Source: Actinomycetota bacterium
Lineage (GTDB): Bacteria; Actinomycetota; Acidimicrobiia; Acidimicrobiales; JAJPHD01
Length of the DNA stretch: 64,000 nucleotides
Assembly: GCA_021325455.1 (NCBI GenBank)
Contig: JAJPHD010000026.1
Coordinates: forward strand, 334,722 to 398,721
Reading direction: 5' to 3'
Shown here piece after piece: positions 7,006 to 28,112 of the stretch. The notes under the pieces were generated by a model that worked only from the letters and a program-made list of their open reading frames with translations, was not told the DNA's origin and searched no databases. The translations under genes were made by a program, and so were the position numbers. How positions within the stretch are numbered: the stretch's first letter is position 1; each line of letters opens with the position of its first letter.

Positions 7006-9039
7006 ATGCCTTCCACCGGCCCCCGTGCCGTCGCGCCTCACGGCTCCTGGCCGTCCCCCATAGGCGCTGCCATGGTGGCGGCCGGGGCCCGCCGCTGGGA
7101 CGCCCTCCAGGTCGATGGGTCGACCCTCTACTGGCTGGAGAGCCGGCCCCAGGAGGGGGGCCGGGTGGCGCTCATGCGGCTGGCGGCTGAGGGCGGGGAC
7201 GAGAGCCAAGGATCGCCGTCCCAGCCCGAGGAGGTGACACCCGCACCGTGGTCCGTGCGCACCAGGGCCCATGAGTACGGAGGCGGGGCCTACCTGGTGG
7301 CGGCTGGGGTGGTGTTCTTCTCCAACTTCTCCGACCAGCGCCTGTGGCGCCTGGACCCGGGGGCTGGCGCCCCCGTCGCCCTGACCGCCCCGGCGGAGGA
7401 GCGCCGGCCCGGCACGCTCTCGGTCCGCTTCGCCGACGCCTGCATGGTCCCCGGCGGCCGCTGGCTGGTCTGCGTCCGGGAGTCCCACTACGGACCGGCC
7501 GCCACCCAGGTGGTGAACGAGCTGGTGGCCCTGCCCACGGGCGAGGGCGGCGGGGAGGAGCGCGTGCTGGCCACGGGCCGGGACTTCTACTCCTTCCCCA
7601 GGGTGAGCCCCGACGGCCGCCGTCTGGCCTGGACCTGCTGGGACCACCCCCGCATGCCCTGGGACGGGACCGAGCTGTGGGTGGCGGACCTGGACGGGCC
7701 TTCGCTGGACGGTGCCCGCATGGTGGGGGGCGGACCGGAGGAATCGGTCTTCCAGCCCGAATGGGCACCGGACGGGAGCCTCACCTACGTGAGCGACCGG
7801 GACAGCGGCTGGTGGAACCTGTACCTGGACCGCTTGGACGGGGAAGGGCCCCATGCCCTCACCGCCCGGGAGGCCGAGTTCGCCTTGCCCCAGTGGGTGT
7901 TCGGCCAGTCCACCTACGCCCACCTTCCCGACGGCCGGATCGCCTGCAGCTGGTCGCAGGCGGGCCTGGGCCATCTCGGCCTGCTCGACCCCGGCGCCGG
8001 CGAGGCTTCCCTTACCGAGCTCAGCATCCCGCACTCCTCCATCTCCCACGTCCGGGCCACCTCCAGGGGGGTGGCCTACCTGGGCGCCGACCCCCGGACC
8101 CCTCGTGAGGTCGTGGAGATCCCCCTGGGCGGTGGCGAGCCCGGGTCGGCCAGGGTGCTGGCCAGGAGCCGCCACCTCGACCTCGACCCAGCGGGGCTGG
8201 CCCAACCCGATCCGATCGAGTACCCGACAACCGGTGGCCGCAGCGCCCATGCCCTCTACTACCGGCCGGCCAGCGCCAGCCATCGGGGACCGGAGGACGA
8301 GCGGCCACCCTTGGTGGTGATGAGCCACGGTGGCCCCACCGCTGCCACCTCCAGCGCCTTCGACCTGGCCATCCAGTACTGGACCAGCCGGGGCATCGCC
8401 GTGGTGGACGTCAACTACGGAGGCAGCACCGGCTACGGACGCGAGTACCGCCAGCGCCTCAAGGGCGCCTGGGGGATCGTGGACGTCGACGACTGCGTGA
8501 ACGCCGCCCGGTACCTGGCCGACAGGGGCGAGGTGGACGGGGACCGGCTGGCGATCCGGGGCGGGAGCGCCGGTGGGTACACGACCCTTTGCGCCCTCAC
8601 CTTCAGGGACGTGTTCGCCGCGGGGGCCAGCTACTACGGGGTGGCCGACGCCGCCGCTCTGGCCGCCGACACCCACAAGTTCGAGTCACGCTACCTGGAC
8701 GGGCTCATCGGCCCCTGGCCGGAGGCGGAGCGCACCTACTGGGAGCGCTCGCCCGTCCACCATGTCGCCCAGCTCTCCTGCCCCCTCATAGTCTTCCAGG
8801 GGCTGGAGGACCCCGTGGTCCCGCCCAACCAGGCCGAGGCCATGGTGGCGGCCCTGCGGGAGAGGGGCATACCCCATGCCTACCTGGCCTTCGAGGGCGA
8901 GCAGCACGGCTTCCGGAGGGCCGAGACGGTGCAGCGCTGCCTCGAGGCCGAGCTCTACTTCTACGGCGCCATCCTCGGCTTCGAGGTGGTGGACGCCGTG
9001 GAGCCCGTCCCCATCGAGCCACCGCCCCGCCAGACCTGA
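7006..9039 (+). CDS. S9-family serine peptidase (prolyl oligopeptidase / acylaminoacyl-peptidase-like)
   Basis: 677 aa. N-terminal beta-propeller-like region (WAPDGS, SPDGRRLAW) plus a C-terminal alpha/beta-hydrolase domain with nucleophile elbow GGSAGGYTT and an HGF histidine region. Confidence 0.85.
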   Translation: MPSTGPRAVAPHGSWPSPIGAAMVAAGARRWDALQVDGSTLYWLESRPQEGGRVALMRLAAEGGDESQGSPSQPEEVTPAPWSVRTRAHEYGGGAYLVAAGVVFFSNFSDQRLWRLDPGAGAPVALTAPAEERRPGTLSVRFADACMVPGGRWLVCVRESHYGPAATQVVNELVALPTGEGGGEERVLATGRDFYSFPRVSPDGRRLAWTCWDHPRMPWDGTELWVADLDGPSLDGARMVGGGPEESVFQPEWAPDGSLTYVSDRDSGWWNLYLDRLDGEGPHALTAREAEFALPQWVFGQSTYAHLPDGRIACSWSQAGLGHLGLLDPGAGEASLTELSIPHSSISHVRATSRGVAYLGADPRTPREVVEIPLGGGEPGSARVLARSRHLDLDPAGLAQPDPIEYPTTGGRSAHALYYRPASASHRGPEDERPPLVVMSHGGPTAATSSAFDLAIQYWTSRGIAVVDVNYGGSTGYGREYRQRLKGAWGIVDVDDCVNAARYLADRGEVDGDRLAIRGGSAGGYTTLCALTFRDVFAAGASYYGVADAAALAADTHKFESRYLDGLIGPWPEAERTYWERSPVHHVAQLSCPLIVFQGLEDPVVPPNQAEAMVAALRERGIPHAYLAFEGEQHGFRRAETVQRCLEAELYFYGAILGFEVVDAVEPVPIEPPPRQT

Positions 9040-23119: not shown

Positions 23120-24805
23120 TCAGGGGAAGTGGTCGGGTAGGTCATTCTCGTACAGCACGGCATCGCCCGGCCCCAGGTTCTGGCGCACCCAGGCCACCGC
23201 CTCCTCCCGGTTGGCCACCAGCACCACCCGGGGGCCTGAGGGCAACGGAGCCTCGGGGTCCAGGTCCACCAGGCGCCGGGCGGGCCCGGCCGCCACAGGC
23301 ACGGGGGCGGCCCTGGCGCTGGCCCCCACCCCGGCCAGGAGGGCGCGCCTGTTGGTGTGGCCCACGATGACGAGGTCGCTCACCACCTCCCTCGCCAGGG
23401 CGGCCAGGGCCTGGTTCTCCCCGGCCTGGCGCTCGCCCAGCTCGACCATCCCCGGGGTCACGAGCACCCGCCGGCCGTCCTGCGGGCAGTCCAGGGAGGC
23501 CAGGGCAGCCAGTGCCATGCGGGCACCGGCGGGGTTCGAGTTGTAGGTGTCGTCCAGGATGGAGAACCCCCCCGAGCCTTCCAGGGGGGCCAGCCGGTGG
23601 GCGGCCACGGGCAAGGAGGGCAGGAGCCTGCCCACCTCGTCCCCGGGGACACCCAGCTCGAGGGCCACCGCCACGGCGCACGCCACGTTCGTCGGTGCCA
23701 CCTCGGTCCGGGCCCTGACCCGGCCCAGAGGCCGGCCCCCGACCAGGACCGCCCACATGGGACCGCCAGCCCCGGTCCCTGCAAGGGGAGGACGAGCAGG
23801 AGGAGGGACCGTTTCGTCCCCGGCAGGACCGACGAACACATCGGCGGAGGGGTCGGTACCCGAGCAGCGCCAAACCCGCTTCCCGGATGCCGCCGCCCGC
23901 CCCGCCACCGCCGCCAGCCGTTCGTCATCGACGTTCAGCACGGCCACCTCGGCCCCGGCCAGGATCTCCGACTTGGCCTCCACGATCCTGTCCTCCGACC
24001 CGAACCGCTCCAGGTGCACAGGGCCGATGGCGGTGATCACCGACACCTTGGGATGGGTCCAGGAGCACAGCTCCGCGATCTCCCCCTTGCCGTAGGTGCC
24101 CATCTCGGCCACGAAGACCTCGGTCCCCGGTGCCAGGTGCTCGTTGACGGCCCGGGCCAGACCGGCCCGGTTGTTGTAGCTGGCCGGGCTGGGGACCACC
24201 GAGCGGGTGGTGCCGAGGAGGTGGGCCACGTACCCCTTGGTGCTGGTCTTGCCATACGAGCCCGTGATGGCCACCACGACGGGGCCCACCTTGGCCAGCC
24301 GCTCCGCTGCCCGGCGCACGTAGGGCGCCACCAGCCGGCGCTCCAGCGGGGCGGCCAGGAGGCAGGCCAGGTCCACCGTGGCCGGCACGAACAGGGTGAG
24401 CAGGCCGATCAGGGCTCCCCCACCCCCTGCCTCCGCCCCCACCACGGTTGCCGCTGCCAGGGCCACGAGCTGCAGCAGGGCCCAAATGGCCGCCAGCCGG
24501 CGCAGGCGGGCCGTCCAGGCCAGCTTGGCGGTGCGGCCCCGCAGCCCCAGCCCGAGCGGCCCCCCCGCCACCACGGCCGCCGTCACGACCTCCACCGCCG
24601 GCTGAGAGAGGGAGACCAGCAGGGCCAGGGCGGCCAGCACCCACAGCAGGCGGTTGAACCCGATGCCCCCCCACCAGCGCAGGGCGAAGCGCGATCCCGC
24701 CGGCGCCAGGTAGTGCTCGCGCTGGGCGACCCGCAGCCACCGCACCCCGGCCAGGGCCGAGGCCACCAGGCCCGAGAGGGCAGCGGCCCACAGCGAGGGG
24801 CTCAC
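23120..24805 (-). CDS. MurF-like Mur-ligase family protein with about 150-aa N-terminal multi-TM extension
   Basis: 561 aa. At least 4 hydrophobic helices come before the Mur-ligase P-loop ITGSYGKTSTKGY. AEMGTYGKGEI, DDTYNSNP and LVTPGMVELG are MurF-type motifs. GTGA overlap with the upstream hydrolase stop. Confidence 0.8.
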   Translation of the reverse strand: MSPSLWAAALSGLVASALAGVRWLRVAQREHYLAPAGSRFALRWWGGIGFNRLLWVLAALALLVSLSQPAVEVVTAAVVAGGPLGLGLRGRTAKLAWTARLRRLAAIWALLQLVALAAATVVGAEAGGGGALIGLLTLFVPATVDLACLLAAPLERRLVAPYVRRAAERLAKVGPVVVAITGSYGKTSTKGYVAHLLGTTRSVVPSPASYNNRAGLARAVNEHLAPGTEVFVAEMGTYGKGEIAELCSWTHPKVSVITAIGPVHLERFGSEDRIVEAKSEILAGAEVAVLNVDDERLAAVAGRAAASGKRVWRCSGTDPSADVFVGPAGDETVPPPARPPLAGTGAGGPMWAVLVGGRPLGRVRARTEVAPTNVACAVAVALELGVPGDEVGRLLPSLPVAAHRLAPLEGSGGFSILDDTYNSNPAGARMALAALASLDCPQDGRRVLVTPGMVELGERQAGENQALAALAREVVSDLVIVGHTNRRALLAGVGASARAAPVPVAAGPARRLVDLDPEAPLPSGPRVVLVANREEAVAWVRQNLGPGDAVLYENDLPDHFP

Positions 24806-25590
24806 CGGGGTCGGTGGCGGAGGAGGGCCTGGCGGAGAGCACCGGGCACCTCGATCGGGGTCATGTGCCCGGCTCCGGGGCAGAGGGTGAGCCGGGCGCG
24901 TCCGTCCAGCAGGGCCGAGGCGGCCCGAGCCACCTCCACGGGGACCTCGGTGTCATGCTCGCCCCACACCAGCTCCACCGGGCCGGGCAGGCGGGCCAGG
25001 TCATCGTCATAGGCCTCGTTGACCAGGTGCACGAACACCTCCCGCATCACTCCGCTGGCCTGGCGGTAGTCGGCCGAGCCGTAGCGATGGCGCAGCCTCT
25101 CCATGGTGGCGTCGGGAAGGAGCCCACGGCGGTGAGCGCCTTTGGCCAGGCGGAACGCCAGCGGGGCCCTCCTCGGCCCCCCGCCCACCTGCGCCAGGCT
25201 AGGGACGCCGGTCAGCACCAGCCCTCCCACCAGCGAGGGCCAGCCAGCCGCCAGGCGCACGGCCACCCTCCCCCCGAAGGAGTGGCCCAGCACCACCACC
25301 GGCCGGCCCAGCTCCCCCGCCATGGCCTCCACGACGGGGACCACCGCCCGGGCGTAGCCCTCGGACCCCCACCCCTCAGGCGGCGGCGGGCTGGCCCCGA
25401 AGCCGGGCAGGTCCAGGGCAACGGCATCGAGGGCCGGCTCCGGGCCGGCTCCGGGGGTGGCCGGGACCGGGCCCAGCACGGAGTCGAAGTCGCGGTGGGT
25501 CCTCCGCCAACCGTGGAGGGCCAGTGCCCAGGGAGGGCGGGACCCCGTCCTGGCGCCGAAGAGCCGACCAGCGTCGAAGGAGCTCAGCAT
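24802..25590 (-). CDS. alpha/beta hydrolase
   Basis: 262 aa. LALHGWRRTHRDF, nucleophile elbow GHSFGGRVA, C-terminal GAGHMTP. First gene of the hydrolase/MurF-like/Ddl string. Confidence 0.75.
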   Translation of the reverse strand: MLSSFDAGRLFGARTGSRPPWALALHGWRRTHRDFDSVLGPVPATPGAGPEPALDAVALDLPGFGASPPPPEGWGSEGYARAVVPVVEAMAGELGRPVVVLGHSFGGRVAVRLAAGWPSLVGGLVLTGVPSLAQVGGGPRRAPLAFRLAKGAHRRGLLPDATMERLRHRYGSADYRQASGVMREVFVHLVNEAYDDDLARLPGPVELVWGEHDTEVPVEVARAASALLDGRARLTLCPGAGHMTPIEVPGALRQALLRHRPR

Positions 25591-25650
25591 GGGGTTCGGG
25601 AGAACGGGGTGCGCATCTCGCGGATGGTCACGATAGTGGGCCGATGCCCC

Positions 25651-25679
25651 TTGACTGTGGGACCGGGAGGGTGCAGACT
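25651..25679 (+). promoter_or_regulatory. candidate sigma-A-type promoter: TTGACT - 17 nt - CAGACT
   Basis: TTGACT (25651-56) matches TTGACA at 5 of 6 positions. After a 17-nt spacer, CAGACT keeps the conserved A2/T6 of TANNNT. It would give a leader of about 260 nt before uvrD2. Confidence 0.35.
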
Positions 25680-25699
25680 CCCCCTAGCTCAGCGTGACG

Positions 25700-25932
25700 C
25701 AGCCCAGCGGACGCCGGGGAGAGGGTGGCCACAGGTCGCCCCCCTGGAGCGGGAGCGGGGCGAGGTTGCACTGGGTCAGGGCGTCTAGCCCTGCAGCGGA
25801 ACAGCAGTTCCGCCATAGAGCCGGGTAAGCCCGGAGGCTCGGTCCCGAGGAGACCGGGGAGATCCCCGGCTACTTGGGGCCGAGTCGCGTGGGGGCCCCG
25901 GAGCCAAAACCACATCGGTGTAACGCGGGCTG
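25700..25932 (+). ncRNA. candidate structured RNA / long structured 5' leader of uvrD2 (family not recognised)
   Basis: Four contiguous hairpins: 25777-93 (6 bp), 25796-813 (7 bp, AGCA loop), 25818-40 (8 bp, UAAG loop) and 25841-81 (9+6 bp, including 2 G-U pairs that exist only on the + strand). A closing stem pairs 25700-09 with 25924-32. Confidence 0.3.
25797..25812. promoter_or_regulatory. weak LexA-box-like palindrome CGGAAC-AGCA-GTTCCG
   Basis: The core GAAC-N4-GTTC of the actinobacterial SOS box is present, but the flanks differ from TCGAAC/GTTCGA. It coincides with hairpin 2 of the structured leader, 135 nt upstream of the uvrD2 ATG. Confidence 0.3.
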
Positions 25933-25946
25933 GCTATGGTCGGGCC

Positions 25947-28112
25947 ATGGACGACCGGCTGCTCGATGGCCTCACCCCGAGCCAGCGCCAGGCCGTCGTG
26001 GTGGAGGCGGCCCCGTTGTGCATCCTGGCCGGCGCCGGCTCGGGCAAGACCCGGGTCCTCACCCACCGCATCGCCTGGAGGATCGCCTCGGGATCGGCCA
26101 GCCCCTCCCATGTCCTGGCCCTCACCTTCACGCGCAAGGCTGCCGGCGAGCTCCGCCGTCGCCTGCTGTCGCTGGGGGCGCGGGACCAGGTGGCGGCAGC
26201 CACCTTTCACGCCGCCGCCCTGGCCCAGCTCCGCCGCCGGTGGGCGGACCAGGGCCGGACTCCCCCGGCCATCCTCCAGCGCAAGTCCGCTCTGCTGGGC
26301 CGGGTCCTACCCCGCCATCACCGGGGAGGCCAGCCGGGCGAGGTCCTGGCCGCTCTGGCCGGCGAGATCGAGTGGGCCAAGGCCCGCCTGGTCGACCCGG
26401 CGGGCTACCCGTCGGCGGCGGTCGCCGGGGGCCGGCGCCCCCCGCTCACCCCCGGGGAGGTGGCAGAGGCCTACCGTGCCTATGAGGAAGAGAAGGCCAG
26501 ACGGGGCCTCATGGACCTGGACGACCTGCTGGTGGCTTGCGCCAGCGCCATCGAGGCCGACCCCGTGTTCGCCGCTGCCCAGCGCTGGCGCTTCCGGCAC
26601 GTGTTCGTGGACGAGTTCCAGGACGTGAACCCCGCCCAGGAGCGCCTGCTCAGGGCCTGGCTCGGCTCCAACCGGGACCTGTGCGTGGTGGGGGACCCCC
26701 ACCAGGCCATATACGGATGGAACGGAGCCGACCCCACCGCCCTGACCCGCATGCCCGAGCGCTTCCCGGGCACGGAGGTGGTGAGGCTGGAGGACAACTG
26801 GCGCTCCTCGCCCCAGATCCTGGCCGTGGCCTCGGCCGTGCTGAGCCATGGCCGCCGGGCTGCCCGGGGCGGGGGCGCCCCTCTCCGGGCCCACCGACCC
26901 GACGGCCCCGTGCCCACCATCACCCCCTACGGCTCCGACCGCCTGGAGGCGGAAGGGATCGCCCGCAGGGCCCGCCAAGCCCACCGGCCGGGGCGTCCCT
27001 GGTCGGACATGGCTGTCCTGGTGCGCACCAACGCCCAGATACCGCTGCTGGAGGAGGCCCTGCAGGCGGCAGGCATACCGCACCGGGCTCCCGGAGGAGG
27101 GCTTCTCTCCCAGGGTGTCGTGCAGGAGGCCCTGGCCCGCCTGGGCCGCTCGCCTCACCGCAGCATGACGGCGGTGGCGGCCCAGCTGAGGGAGGAGGCA
27201 GCGGAGTGGGCCGCCCCGAGCCGGGACCTGCAGGCTCCGGGCCCGGTCGGTGCTGGCGCCGCCGGCGACCCGGGCGACGAGCGGGCCGACCTGCTCCTGG
27301 GCCTGGCCCGCCTGGCCGGCGAGTACCAGTCGCTCGACCCGGAAGCGACGGCGGCGGGGTTCGAGCCCTGGCTGGTCGCCACCTTGGGCCGGGCCTCGGA
27401 GGAGGAGGGGAGCGATGCCGTCCAGGTCCTCACCTTCCACCGGGCCAAGGGCCTCGAGTGGCCGGTCGTCCTGGTGGCGGGGCTGGAGCTCGGGCTGGTG
27501 CCCATCGGCCACGCCACCACCCCGGCGGCCGACGAGGAGGAGCGCCGGTTGCTCTACGTGGCCCTGACCCGGGCCGAGGCCGAGCTGCACTGCTCCTGGG
27601 CCCGCCGGCGCACCTTCGGTGAGCGGACCACCCGGCGCTCCCCCTCCCCCTACCTGGCCACGCTGGAGTCGGTCTGCTCCTCCCTGGCACGGGCGCCGGC
27701 GGGGGCCCAGGTGGCCGACCTGCTGGCCGCCAGCCGAAGGGCCCTGGAGCAGGGGGCCACCAAGGGAGCGGGCCCAGCTGCGGGAGGGCGCTCGGACCTG
27801 GTCCACAGGCGAGGGCGGCGGAGCGGGGGGACCGGGCGGGGCGGTCCCCGCGAGGCACCGGCGCTCACCCTGGCCCGGTCCGCCAACCCCGAGGCGGTGG
27901 AGGCCCTGCGAGCCTGGCGGGCAGCCACCGCTCGGGCCTCCGGGGTGCCTGCCTACGTGATCCTCCACGACGCCACCCTGGCCGGCCTCGCCAGCGCCCT
28001 GCCCTCCACCCCCGGCGACCTGCAGGGGCTCCCCGGGCTCGGCCCCGTCAAGGTCGCCCGCTACGGCCGGGCCCTGCTGGAGGTACTGGCGCCCTACCGG
28101 GCCTCCGCCTGA
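25947..28112 (+). CDS. uvrD2: UvrD2-type superfamily-1 DNA helicase with C-terminal HRDC domain
   Basis: Start re-set to ATG 25947 (MDDRLLDGLTPSQRQAV). Walker A AGAGSGKTRVL, motif II VDEFQDVN, NWRSS. The C-terminal HRDC is LRAWRAATARASGVPAYVILHDATLAGLA...LQGLPGLGPVKVARYG. Confidence 0.88.
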   Translation: MDDRLLDGLTPSQRQAVVVEAAPLCILAGAGSGKTRVLTHRIAWRIASGSASPSHVLALTFTRKAAGELRRRLLSLGARDQVAAATFHAAALAQLRRRWADQGRTPPAILQRKSALLGRVLPRHHRGGQPGEVLAALAGEIEWAKARLVDPAGYPSAAVAGGRRPPLTPGEVAEAYRAYEEEKARRGLMDLDDLLVACASAIEADPVFAAAQRWRFRHVFVDEFQDVNPAQERLLRAWLGSNRDLCVVGDPHQAIYGWNGADPTALTRMPERFPGTEVVRLEDNWRSSPQILAVASAVLSHGRRAARGGGAPLRAHRPDGPVPTITPYGSDRLEAEGIARRARQAHRPGRPWSDMAVLVRTNAQIPLLEEALQAAGIPHRAPGGGLLSQGVVQEALARLGRSPHRSMTAVAAQLREEAAEWAAPSRDLQAPGPVGAGAAGDPGDERADLLLGLARLAGEYQSLDPEATAAGFEPWLVATLGRASEEEGSDAVQVLTFHRAKGLEWPVVLVAGLELGLVPIGHATTPAADEEERRLLYVALTRAEAELHCSWARRRTFGERTTRRSPSPYLATLESVCSSLARAPAGAQVADLLAASRRALEQGATKGAGPAAGGRSDLVHRRGRRSGGTGRGGPREAPALTLARSANPEAVEALRAWRAATARASGVPAYVILHDATLAGLASALPSTPGDLQGLPGLGPVKVARYGRALLEVLAPYRASA

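Follow-up and report, generated by a model that had tools for sequence, protein, structure and literature searches.

The intergenic region at 25591–25946 of the 64-kb stretch of Acidimicrobiales DNA analysed here (the window) contains a structured plus-strand segment that is likely to be an independent, conserved small-RNA gene. Its product most likely belongs to an apparently undescribed RNA family, of which Acidimicrobiia-like genomes and metagenomes, more than 100 in number, contain instances. The family combines a variable body with a conserved 3′ module, and is located next to the helicase gene uvrD2 in some lineages and elsewhere in others. An earlier reading of the letters alone (the sequence-only reading) had described the region as a 356-bp divergent spacer, which it is, and had proposed either an independent small RNA or a cis-regulatory leader of the helicase; the first option is supported, whereas the second is not supported as the main role. 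The account favoured as a whole, namely a free-standing small-RNA gene at 25651–25892 upstream of a separate, leaderless uvrD2, is probable. Microbial communities of soil, fresh water, the sea and wastewater are rich in Acidimicrobiia, but few members have been cultured, and to our knowledge there is almost no work on their non-coding RNAs.

A covarying 3′ hairpin defines the family

The sequence surveyed comprised ~3 kb on each side of uvrD2 in 80 species-level loci, all of them Acidimicrobiia or Actinomycetota metagenome-assembled genomes (MAGs) with UvrD2 proteins 41–64% identical to that of the window, together with metagenome contigs. A characteristic hairpin is present upstream of uvrD2, on the same strand, in 22 of the 80 species loci. 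At its base, GGYCCCRAGRAG and YUACUYGGGGCC enclose an apex that is variable but paired, and the stem is interrupted by an internal purine-A mismatch. A covariance-model search of 65 other loci (62 of the remaining species loci and three newly fetched) revealed no further copies of the hairpin, and the RNA was not found in the loci of UvrD2 homologues 58–60% identical to the window protein. Plain blastn and nhmmer searches with the region against the 80 loci matched L002 and L018 only, because the bodies of the RNAs diverge quickly.

Orthologous uvrD2 upstream regions, to which the sequence-only reading had looked for conservation and covariation, provide both. Across 18 distinct copies, taken from loci drawn via uvrD2 and then located by motif, 91.7% of the basal-stem cells are paired (29–58% in slid controls), and both sides have changed in 21 cells against 10.6 in shuffles, a number reached by none of 500 shuffles. 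Position 3 of the basal stem alternates between G-C, A-U and G·U, and the pair four positions outside the core between C-G, A-U, G-C and U-A. A purine-A mismatch occupies one internal stem position throughout (15 copies with G-A and 2 with A-A), and the apical stems vary in length and sequence yet pair, with loops that are often GGAA, GCAA or UUCG. A covariance model of 20 members (R1), from which the window and its closest relative L081 were left out, scores 51.1 bits (E = 6e-10) on the window at 25838–25891, compared with 16.9 bits for the runner-up in the 64 kb; hairpin pattern and model agree on a single copy.

The stem sequence, its purine-A mismatch and a bulge are kept across lineages with UvrD2 proteins just 45–55% identical while all else drifts, which argues for a constraint beyond simple termination. 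The most economical guess, and a tentative one, is that a protein or some other partner recognises this stem, which would then be more than a terminator. Two other kinds of reading of the hairpin were considered: a DNA operator was rejected, as compensating changes accompany a variable half-site spacing (8–40 nucleotides (nt) among the search patterns), and K-turn, loop E, tetraloop-receptor or Y-RNA/Ro-binding stems were set aside, having nothing in their favour.

The family occurs independently of uvrD2

A scan of metagenomes with the hairpin pattern returned at least 120 matches; six clear chance matches inside coding sequence were excluded and 114 counted. Among the matches listed, uvrD2 lies 37–281 nt 3′ of the hairpin on the same strand in 62 of the 114 and is upstream of and divergent from it in 4. 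A further 35 have at least 400 nt of downstream sequence and no uvrD2, and 13 are too short to tell; the latter include L104, which also resembles the chance matches. In the four divergent cases (L097, L120, L178 and L190), the RNA gene adjoins uvrD2 and points in the opposite direction, with the promoters of the two genes back to back ~100–150 nt apart. Co-transcription is therefore impossible in these loci, though the adjacency is kept.

The unlinked copies form several sequence groups, each with its own body, and the promoter type and the hairpin are common to all. Their neighbours are heterogeneous (an ABC transporter with WS/DGAT, cupin with cation efflux, acyl-CoA synthetase with XdhC, and also AhpC, APH, patatin, bPH_2, MBL and amine oxidase), and no conserved neighbouring gene was found beside the unlinked copies examined. 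The best named relatives of one neighbour protein are from Acidimicrobiales and Acidimicrobiia MAGs; judged by this one protein and the MAG labels, the family seems to extend over the class but not the phylum. Within subfamilies, the bodies display compensatory changes, for instance in 14 of 48 body pairs of the unlinked group G1, a count that leans toward the G1 structure because the alignment scored had also served to predict it. Among 61 non-redundant members, the bodies share no 6-mer or 7-mer beyond shuffle level, nor does any common body motif, GGA-type sponge motifs included, rise above that level. The viral contigs scanned contain no copy of the hairpin.

uvrD2 appears to have its own leaderless promoter

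A conserved promoter motif of the RecA-NDp/PafBC type lies between the RNA and uvrD2 (Table 1), and the uvrD2 ATG starts 6 nt after its −10 element. The lack of a Shine–Dalgarno sequence before this ATG, remarked on in the sequence-only reading and borne out here, is explained by a promoter placed right at the start codon, and the uvrD2 mRNA is probably leaderless. Most of the 80 uvrD2 loci share the arrangement (ATCCACCA)-nnnn-GTCAcac-N8-TAnnnT, followed by ATG or GTG 5–9 nt on. A strict form of the motif (nGTCR-N3-N8-TAnnnT with a start codon 5–9 nt later) is present in 42 of the 78 loci scored, where shuffles give 0.05, and the promoter is also found in loci without the upstream RNA (L082, L084 and L001).

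The consensus for RecA-independent, PafBC-dependent mycobacterial damage promoters, reportedly described by Gamulin and colleagues in 2004, is tTGTCRgtg-N8-TAnnnT. Both the window element and the nGTCAcac-N8-TAnnnT form of the orthologous loci fit this consensus, with one deviation in the window, an A where the consensus has C. These motifs suggest that a damage promoter of the PafBC type, conserved across Acidimicrobiia, drives uvrD2 and that its mRNA is leaderless and damage-inducible. The RecA-NDp motif has been reported to reach other Actinobacteria (PMC8223512).

A further conserved block, reading (C)ATCCACCA, is located ~12 nt 5′ of the GTCAC element in L005, L010, L011, L016, L019, L036 and others, with AAAACCACAT at 25906–25915 of the window, and may be part of an activator site. 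The uvrD2 codons at 25976–25982 (CCCCGAG, in the stretch encoding the conserved L-T-P-S-Q motif) resemble the 5′ arm of the RNA hairpin at 25844–25850 and are complementary to its 3′ arm at 25873–25879 (CUUGGGG); this resemblance is probably a coincidence. The unrelated contigs of L003, L020, L040 and L045 all end 386–388 nt 5′ of the uvrD2 match with dissimilar upstream sequences, which may be chance or a retrieval artefact.

The structured segment could alternatively be a long uvrD2 5′ leader transcribed from a constitutive promoter, with the hairpin as a regulated attenuator or processing site acting in cis. The hairpin is indeed co-oriented with and near uvrD2 in all 22 positive species loci and in the 62 metagenome matches given above, and the window hairpin has no U-tract. 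Such a leader is nonetheless unlikely, given the listed copies with no uvrD2 downstream or with a divergent one, and given the leaderless uvrD2 promoter between hairpin and ATG, which is kept where the RNA is lacking. The variable distance from hairpin to uvrD2 also speaks against it, as does the bunching, just after the hairpin, of the changes that L081 shows outside the RNA. In L002, moreover, a U8 terminator directly 3′ of the hairpin is followed by ~240 nt before uvrD2, and the bodies have no common sequence core such as a ligand sensor would need.

Promoter and extent of the small RNA

The TTGACT-17-CAGACT promoter candidate of the sequence-only reading is present as described (Table 1), and a related −10 element (gGTGCAGACT or GCACACT type) is found in L002, L018, L024 and others. 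The same layout recurs in uvrD2 upstream regions: CCTTGAC, 17–18 nt, a −10 element (such as gGTGCAGACT, GCACACT or CGTATGTT), a body and the hairpin. Among the hairpin matches listed, 126 have enough upstream sequence to be scored, and 100 of these carry TTGAC-N17-19-nAnnnT 86–333 nt 5′ of the hairpin on the same strand, where 0.9 would be expected. The body between promoter and hairpin measures ~80–280 nt and differs by lineage, giving predicted RNAs of ~130 to 330 nt; in the window, 165 nt separate the end of the −10 element from the hairpin core.

Unlinked copies of groups G1 and G4 have a conserved and unusually AT-rich block (GAATTCTCTGGAGAAC..TCGGGATTTCG) 5′ of the −35 element, the G1 members being L098, L102, L115, L118, L133, L146, L150, L159, L161, L193, L199 and L201. 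This block may act as an UP-like element or be bound by a regulator.

Fold of the window copy

The predicted transcript at 25686–25892 folds at −127.9 kcal/mol (z = −6.2 relative to shuffles), its best fold accounting for 17% of the ensemble, and the longer segment 25680–25950 at −156.1 kcal/mol with a plus-strand z of −4.25, against −2.06 for the minus strand. Comparison with shuffled controls thus bears out that the region is structured beyond chance. All four hairpins of the sequence-only reading are present with small corrections to their coordinates. For hairpin 3, the core is confirmed but the proposed outer GAG/CUC pairs are not; they are in competition with the foot of the long helix, which covariation among relatives favours. 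This long helix, the family-defining 3′ hairpin, is a GC-rich stem of 14+2+6 bp, interrupted internally by a G-A mismatch (G25850/A25872) and by a bulge at A25853. Its G-U pairs, of which the sequence-only reading had noted two, number three (G25837·U25885, U25843·G25879 and G25847·U25875); all of them turn into C/A mismatches on the opposite strand and are compatible with a plus-strand RNA only. A 9-bp stem that was thought to enclose all four hairpins (25700–09 with 25924–32) does not hold up: its arms are complementary but unused in the best fold, the 3′ arm falls within the conserved promoter of uvrD2, and L081 has three changes there and none on the 5′ arm.

The relative L081 has the same gene order as the window and a UvrD2 protein that is 82% identical. 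Identity between the two is 91.4% in the RNA segment, 84.0% in the hydrolase gene and 80.9% in uvrD2, and many of the differences within the RNA sit in loops and junctions. In hairpin 1, the loop GUCUA becomes AUCCU through three loop bases, with the stem unchanged; hairpin 2 of L081 has GGUG in place of the AGCA loop and one G·U stem pair where the window has A-U. Single-base insertions occur in a linker and in the apical loop. Outside the RNA, most L081 changes are concentrated in the ~12 nt just 3′ of the hairpin, at about 25891–25902. An in-frame open reading frame from 25725 was also considered, and a total of three single-base indels relative to L081 excludes this coding reading of the RNA segment.

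When L002 is added, the 5′ domain persists in the consensus of the three sequences, as do hairpin 3 and the 3′ hairpin, whereas hairpin 2 is absent from L002 and hairpin 1 reduced. This marks hairpins 1 and 2 as additions specific to a lineage. Support for the 5′ domain is weak, because only three sequences can be aligned.

At the 72% GC content of the folding baseline, shuffled sequences fold strongly too (mean −99 kcal/mol), as would be expected if the structure were a chance product of GC-rich DNA; a palindromic or mobile element of the REP (repetitive extragenic palindromic) or MITE (miniature inverted-repeat transposable element) kind could likewise lack any RNA function. Explanations of this sort are very improbable in view of the z-score of −6.2, the absence of matches in viral contigs, the higher conservation of the RNA than of flanking coding DNA, the covariation and strand-specific G·U pairs, and the consistent pairing of hairpin and promoter. 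A repeat search found no second copy in the window, and the element is present once in the 64 kb and once per related locus, unlike REP- or MITE-like repeats.

Table 1 Features of the uvrD2 upstream region in the window, and positions of the class B RNA in other loci
Feature	Coordinates	Strand	Remarks
Alpha/beta hydrolase gene	24802–25590	minus	Ends at 25590
−35 hexamer TTGACT, small-RNA promoter	25651–25656	plus	CCTTGAC identical in L081 and L002
−10 hexamer CAGACT	25674–25679	plus	17-nt spacer from −35
Predicted small RNA, ~200 nt	25686–25892	plus	Predicted start A25686 from −10 spacing; predicted 3′ end just past hairpin
5′ domain, long irregular hairpin	25687–25776	plus	Best fold; kept in three-sequence consensus, some both-side changes
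Hairpin 1, CAGGGC-GUCUA-GCCCUG	25777–25793	plus	Sequence and best fold
Hairpin 2, GCGGAAC-AGCA-GUUCCGC	25796–25813	plus	Sequence and best fold
Hairpin 3, CCGGG-UAAG-CCCGG	25821–25834	plus	Best fold; three-sequence consensus
Family-defining 3′ hairpin, GGCUCGGUCCCGAG-G-AG-A-CCGGGG-AGAU-CCCCGG-CU-A-CUUGGGGCCGAGUC	25836–25886	plus	Fold, model R1 and covariation
3′ tail UCGCGUG	25885–25891	plus	Family tail pyrimidine-rich, often YCGCGUC
Spacer, RNA to uvrD2 promoter	25893–25915	plus	87% identical to L081 over 23 nt
uvrD2 promoter gTGTAAcgc-N8-TATGGT, RecA-NDp/PafBC-like	25919–25940	plus	Conserved motif, outside the RNA
uvrD2	25947–28112	plus	721 aa; UvrD helicase and HRDC (Pfam domains); start ATG 25947
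Class B, L014	2051–2106		
Class B, L016	2768–2825		
Class B, L019	2714–2771		
Class B, L024	2727–2782		
Class B, L036	2834–2890		
Class B, L039	2605–2658		
Class B, L045	136–190		
Class B, L053	2851–2907		
Class B, L080	2799–2853		
Class B, L010			
Class B, L057			

Probable termination at the hairpin

The hairpin and its pyrimidine-rich tail probably end or protect the transcript. Across the family, tails most often have 2 U among the 8 nt scored downstream of GGGG, two of these 8 nt being the C residues that close the stem, and a terminator scan called no plus-strand terminator at the window hairpin. As most tails are poor U-tracts, termination at the hairpin is something we infer. A tail of the form Y-C-G-C-G-U-C is seen in many members (UUCCGCGUC, UCGCCGCGUC); of 122 distinct tails, 43 match a strict CSGCGY pattern no more than 20 nt away. 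On the minus strand, at 25928–25910, the scan called a terminator-like hairpin with a TTTT tail that overlaps the uvrD2 promoter; no gene ends there, and the call is probably incidental.

Proposed model and points against it

In the proposed model, the housekeeping-type promoter TTGACT-17-CAGACT would start transcription at about A25686, yielding a ~200-nt transcript that would fold into a long 5′ hairpin, three short hairpins and the near-invariant 3′ hairpin. The latter, with its pyrimidine-rich tail, would terminate or shield the transcript, and uvrD2 would be expressed separately as a leaderless mRNA from the damage-type promoter. As to function, our best guess is that the RNA acts in trans and that a protein recognises its 3′ module.

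Several points weigh against this model or parts of it. The metagenome set is silent on conservation of the core stem sequence, because it was collected with the hairpin pattern; only the set drawn via uvrD2 bears on this, and its copies were in turn picked by motif. A generic sigma-70 scan did not call the small-RNA promoter in the window, as CAGACT matches TATAAT at three of six bases, and the start and end of the transcript are both placed by inference from sequence features. Hairpins 1–3 and the 5′ domain of the window are comparable in two relatives only, and one U·G pair in the 5′ domain becomes C/A in L081, so that support for the window-specific body is modest. The window tail is not a U-tract, and read-through into uvrD2 is therefore possible. 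Finally, the trans role is only a guess because neither a partner nor a target emerged, nor any body motif common to the members or ligand-like core.

The findings provide a candidate RNA family for Acidimicrobiia, consisting of promoter, variable body and invariant 3′ hairpin, with more than 100 instances and absent from Rfam 15. The hairpin model can be used for annotation, and the RNA is a target for transcriptomics and pull-downs. The findings also correct the reading of the uvrD2 locus and, as far as motifs can tell, would extend the range of PafBC-type promoters well outside mycobacteria.

Other features of the loci

The database holds a protein identical to the window UvrD2 over its 721 aa. 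An unrelated RNA, termed class B, occupies the same place upstream of uvrD2 in ~11 other loci (Table 1). It has a TTGAC-type promoter and one ~90-nt hairpin (..CCGGUUGCnGCGCCGGC..GGUUCGGGGGGAUCG..GGCGCGCAACCGG..), often with a U-rich tail; searches found no Rfam match for it, even with E relaxed to 10, and the window contains no copy. The metagenome contig L102 carries, at 7324–7383 on the minus strand, a cobalamin riboswitch (RF00174, 33.1 bits) that is unrelated to the small RNA.

Comparison with known RNAs

Searches of Rfam 15 at the gathering score returned nothing in the whole window and nothing on the RNA in 18 uvrD2 loci and 10 unlinked loci, and at E up to 10 the region gave spurious matches only, in agreement with the sequence-only reading, which had recognised no common RNA family there. 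No description of the family was found in the literature on uvrD2-linked small RNAs, Acidimicrobiia 6S RNA and the hairpin motif, and the motif does not occur in the supplements for CoRP and the other RNAs of the RNA immunoprecipitation sequencing (RIP-seq) paper.

6C and similar actinobacterial trans-acting small RNAs are, like the new family, class-wide, with conserved hairpin elements, an independent promoter and a hairpin end. The hosts of 6C-type RNAs and the Acidimicrobiia are generally thought to lack Hfq. The new family differs in that it is defined by a stem sequence with a purine-A mismatch, whereas 6C is defined by C-rich loops, and it has no Rfam 6C match.

6S RNA (ssrS, RF00013) is similarly structured with its own promoter, and high expression is predicted for the present family; ssrS is often beside ygfA, much as the family is often beside uvrD2. 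By contrast, the new RNAs do not match RF00013 at the gathering score or at E up to 10, and lack an end-joining closing stem and a conserved central bubble, the 3′ hairpin being self-contained and the 5′ domain closing on itself; some members are just ~130 nt long. Identity with 6S is ruled out by the model search and by this architecture with its unpaired ends.

Motif and gene neighbourhood do not fit Ms1 (MTS2823, scr3559). The hairpin arms CCCCGAGGAG...CUACUCGGGG do not occur, in a comparison of motifs only, in the supplement of PMC9130861 with Streptomyces coelicolor scr3559, and Ms1 of this species has a different 3′ hairpin, ending GCGGCGGUACGAGCAUUCGUACCGCCGC. Ms1 lies between genes for a HAD-IB hydrolase and an oxidoreductase, as opposed to the alpha/beta hydrolase gene and uvrD2 in the window, and the 5′ and 3′ ends of the window RNA, unlike those of Ms1, do not pair.

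By analogy, the RNA could still be a functional counterpart of 6S and Ms1, that is, an abundant RNA polymerase-binding RNA in a lineage in which neither is described. Most copies have a near-consensus −35 TTGAC, and some groups carry the AT-rich stretch 5′ of it, from which high expression is predicted. The stable long hairpin with internal loops, together with the short hairpins, is loosely Ms1-like (PMC4191392), and the Ms1 survey paper is silent on Acidimicrobiia. We consider such a role improbable: added to the absent 6S match, the different S. coelicolor hairpin and neighbourhood and the unpaired ends, the RNAs range from ~130 to 330 nt in length, and their sole invariant part, a hairpin of ~50 nt, is too small to mimic an open promoter. 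The fuller proposal, in which the 3′ hairpin would dock a partner, the family would be the Acidimicrobiia counterpart of abundant RNAs that bind polymerase or sequester proteins (6S, Ms1, CoRP), and the frequent proximity to the damage-type promoter of uvrD2 would reflect a link to the DNA-damage response, is speculative and unlikely.

The favoured reading thus remains that of a free-standing small-RNA gene, for which Ms1 is the nearest known kind. Both are actinobacterial structured RNAs of a few hundred nt with a long irregular hairpin and short ones, both have a housekeeping-type promoter, form a single-gene unit and end in a hairpin, and the primary sequence of both is poorly conserved across lineages (PMC4191392, PMC9130861).

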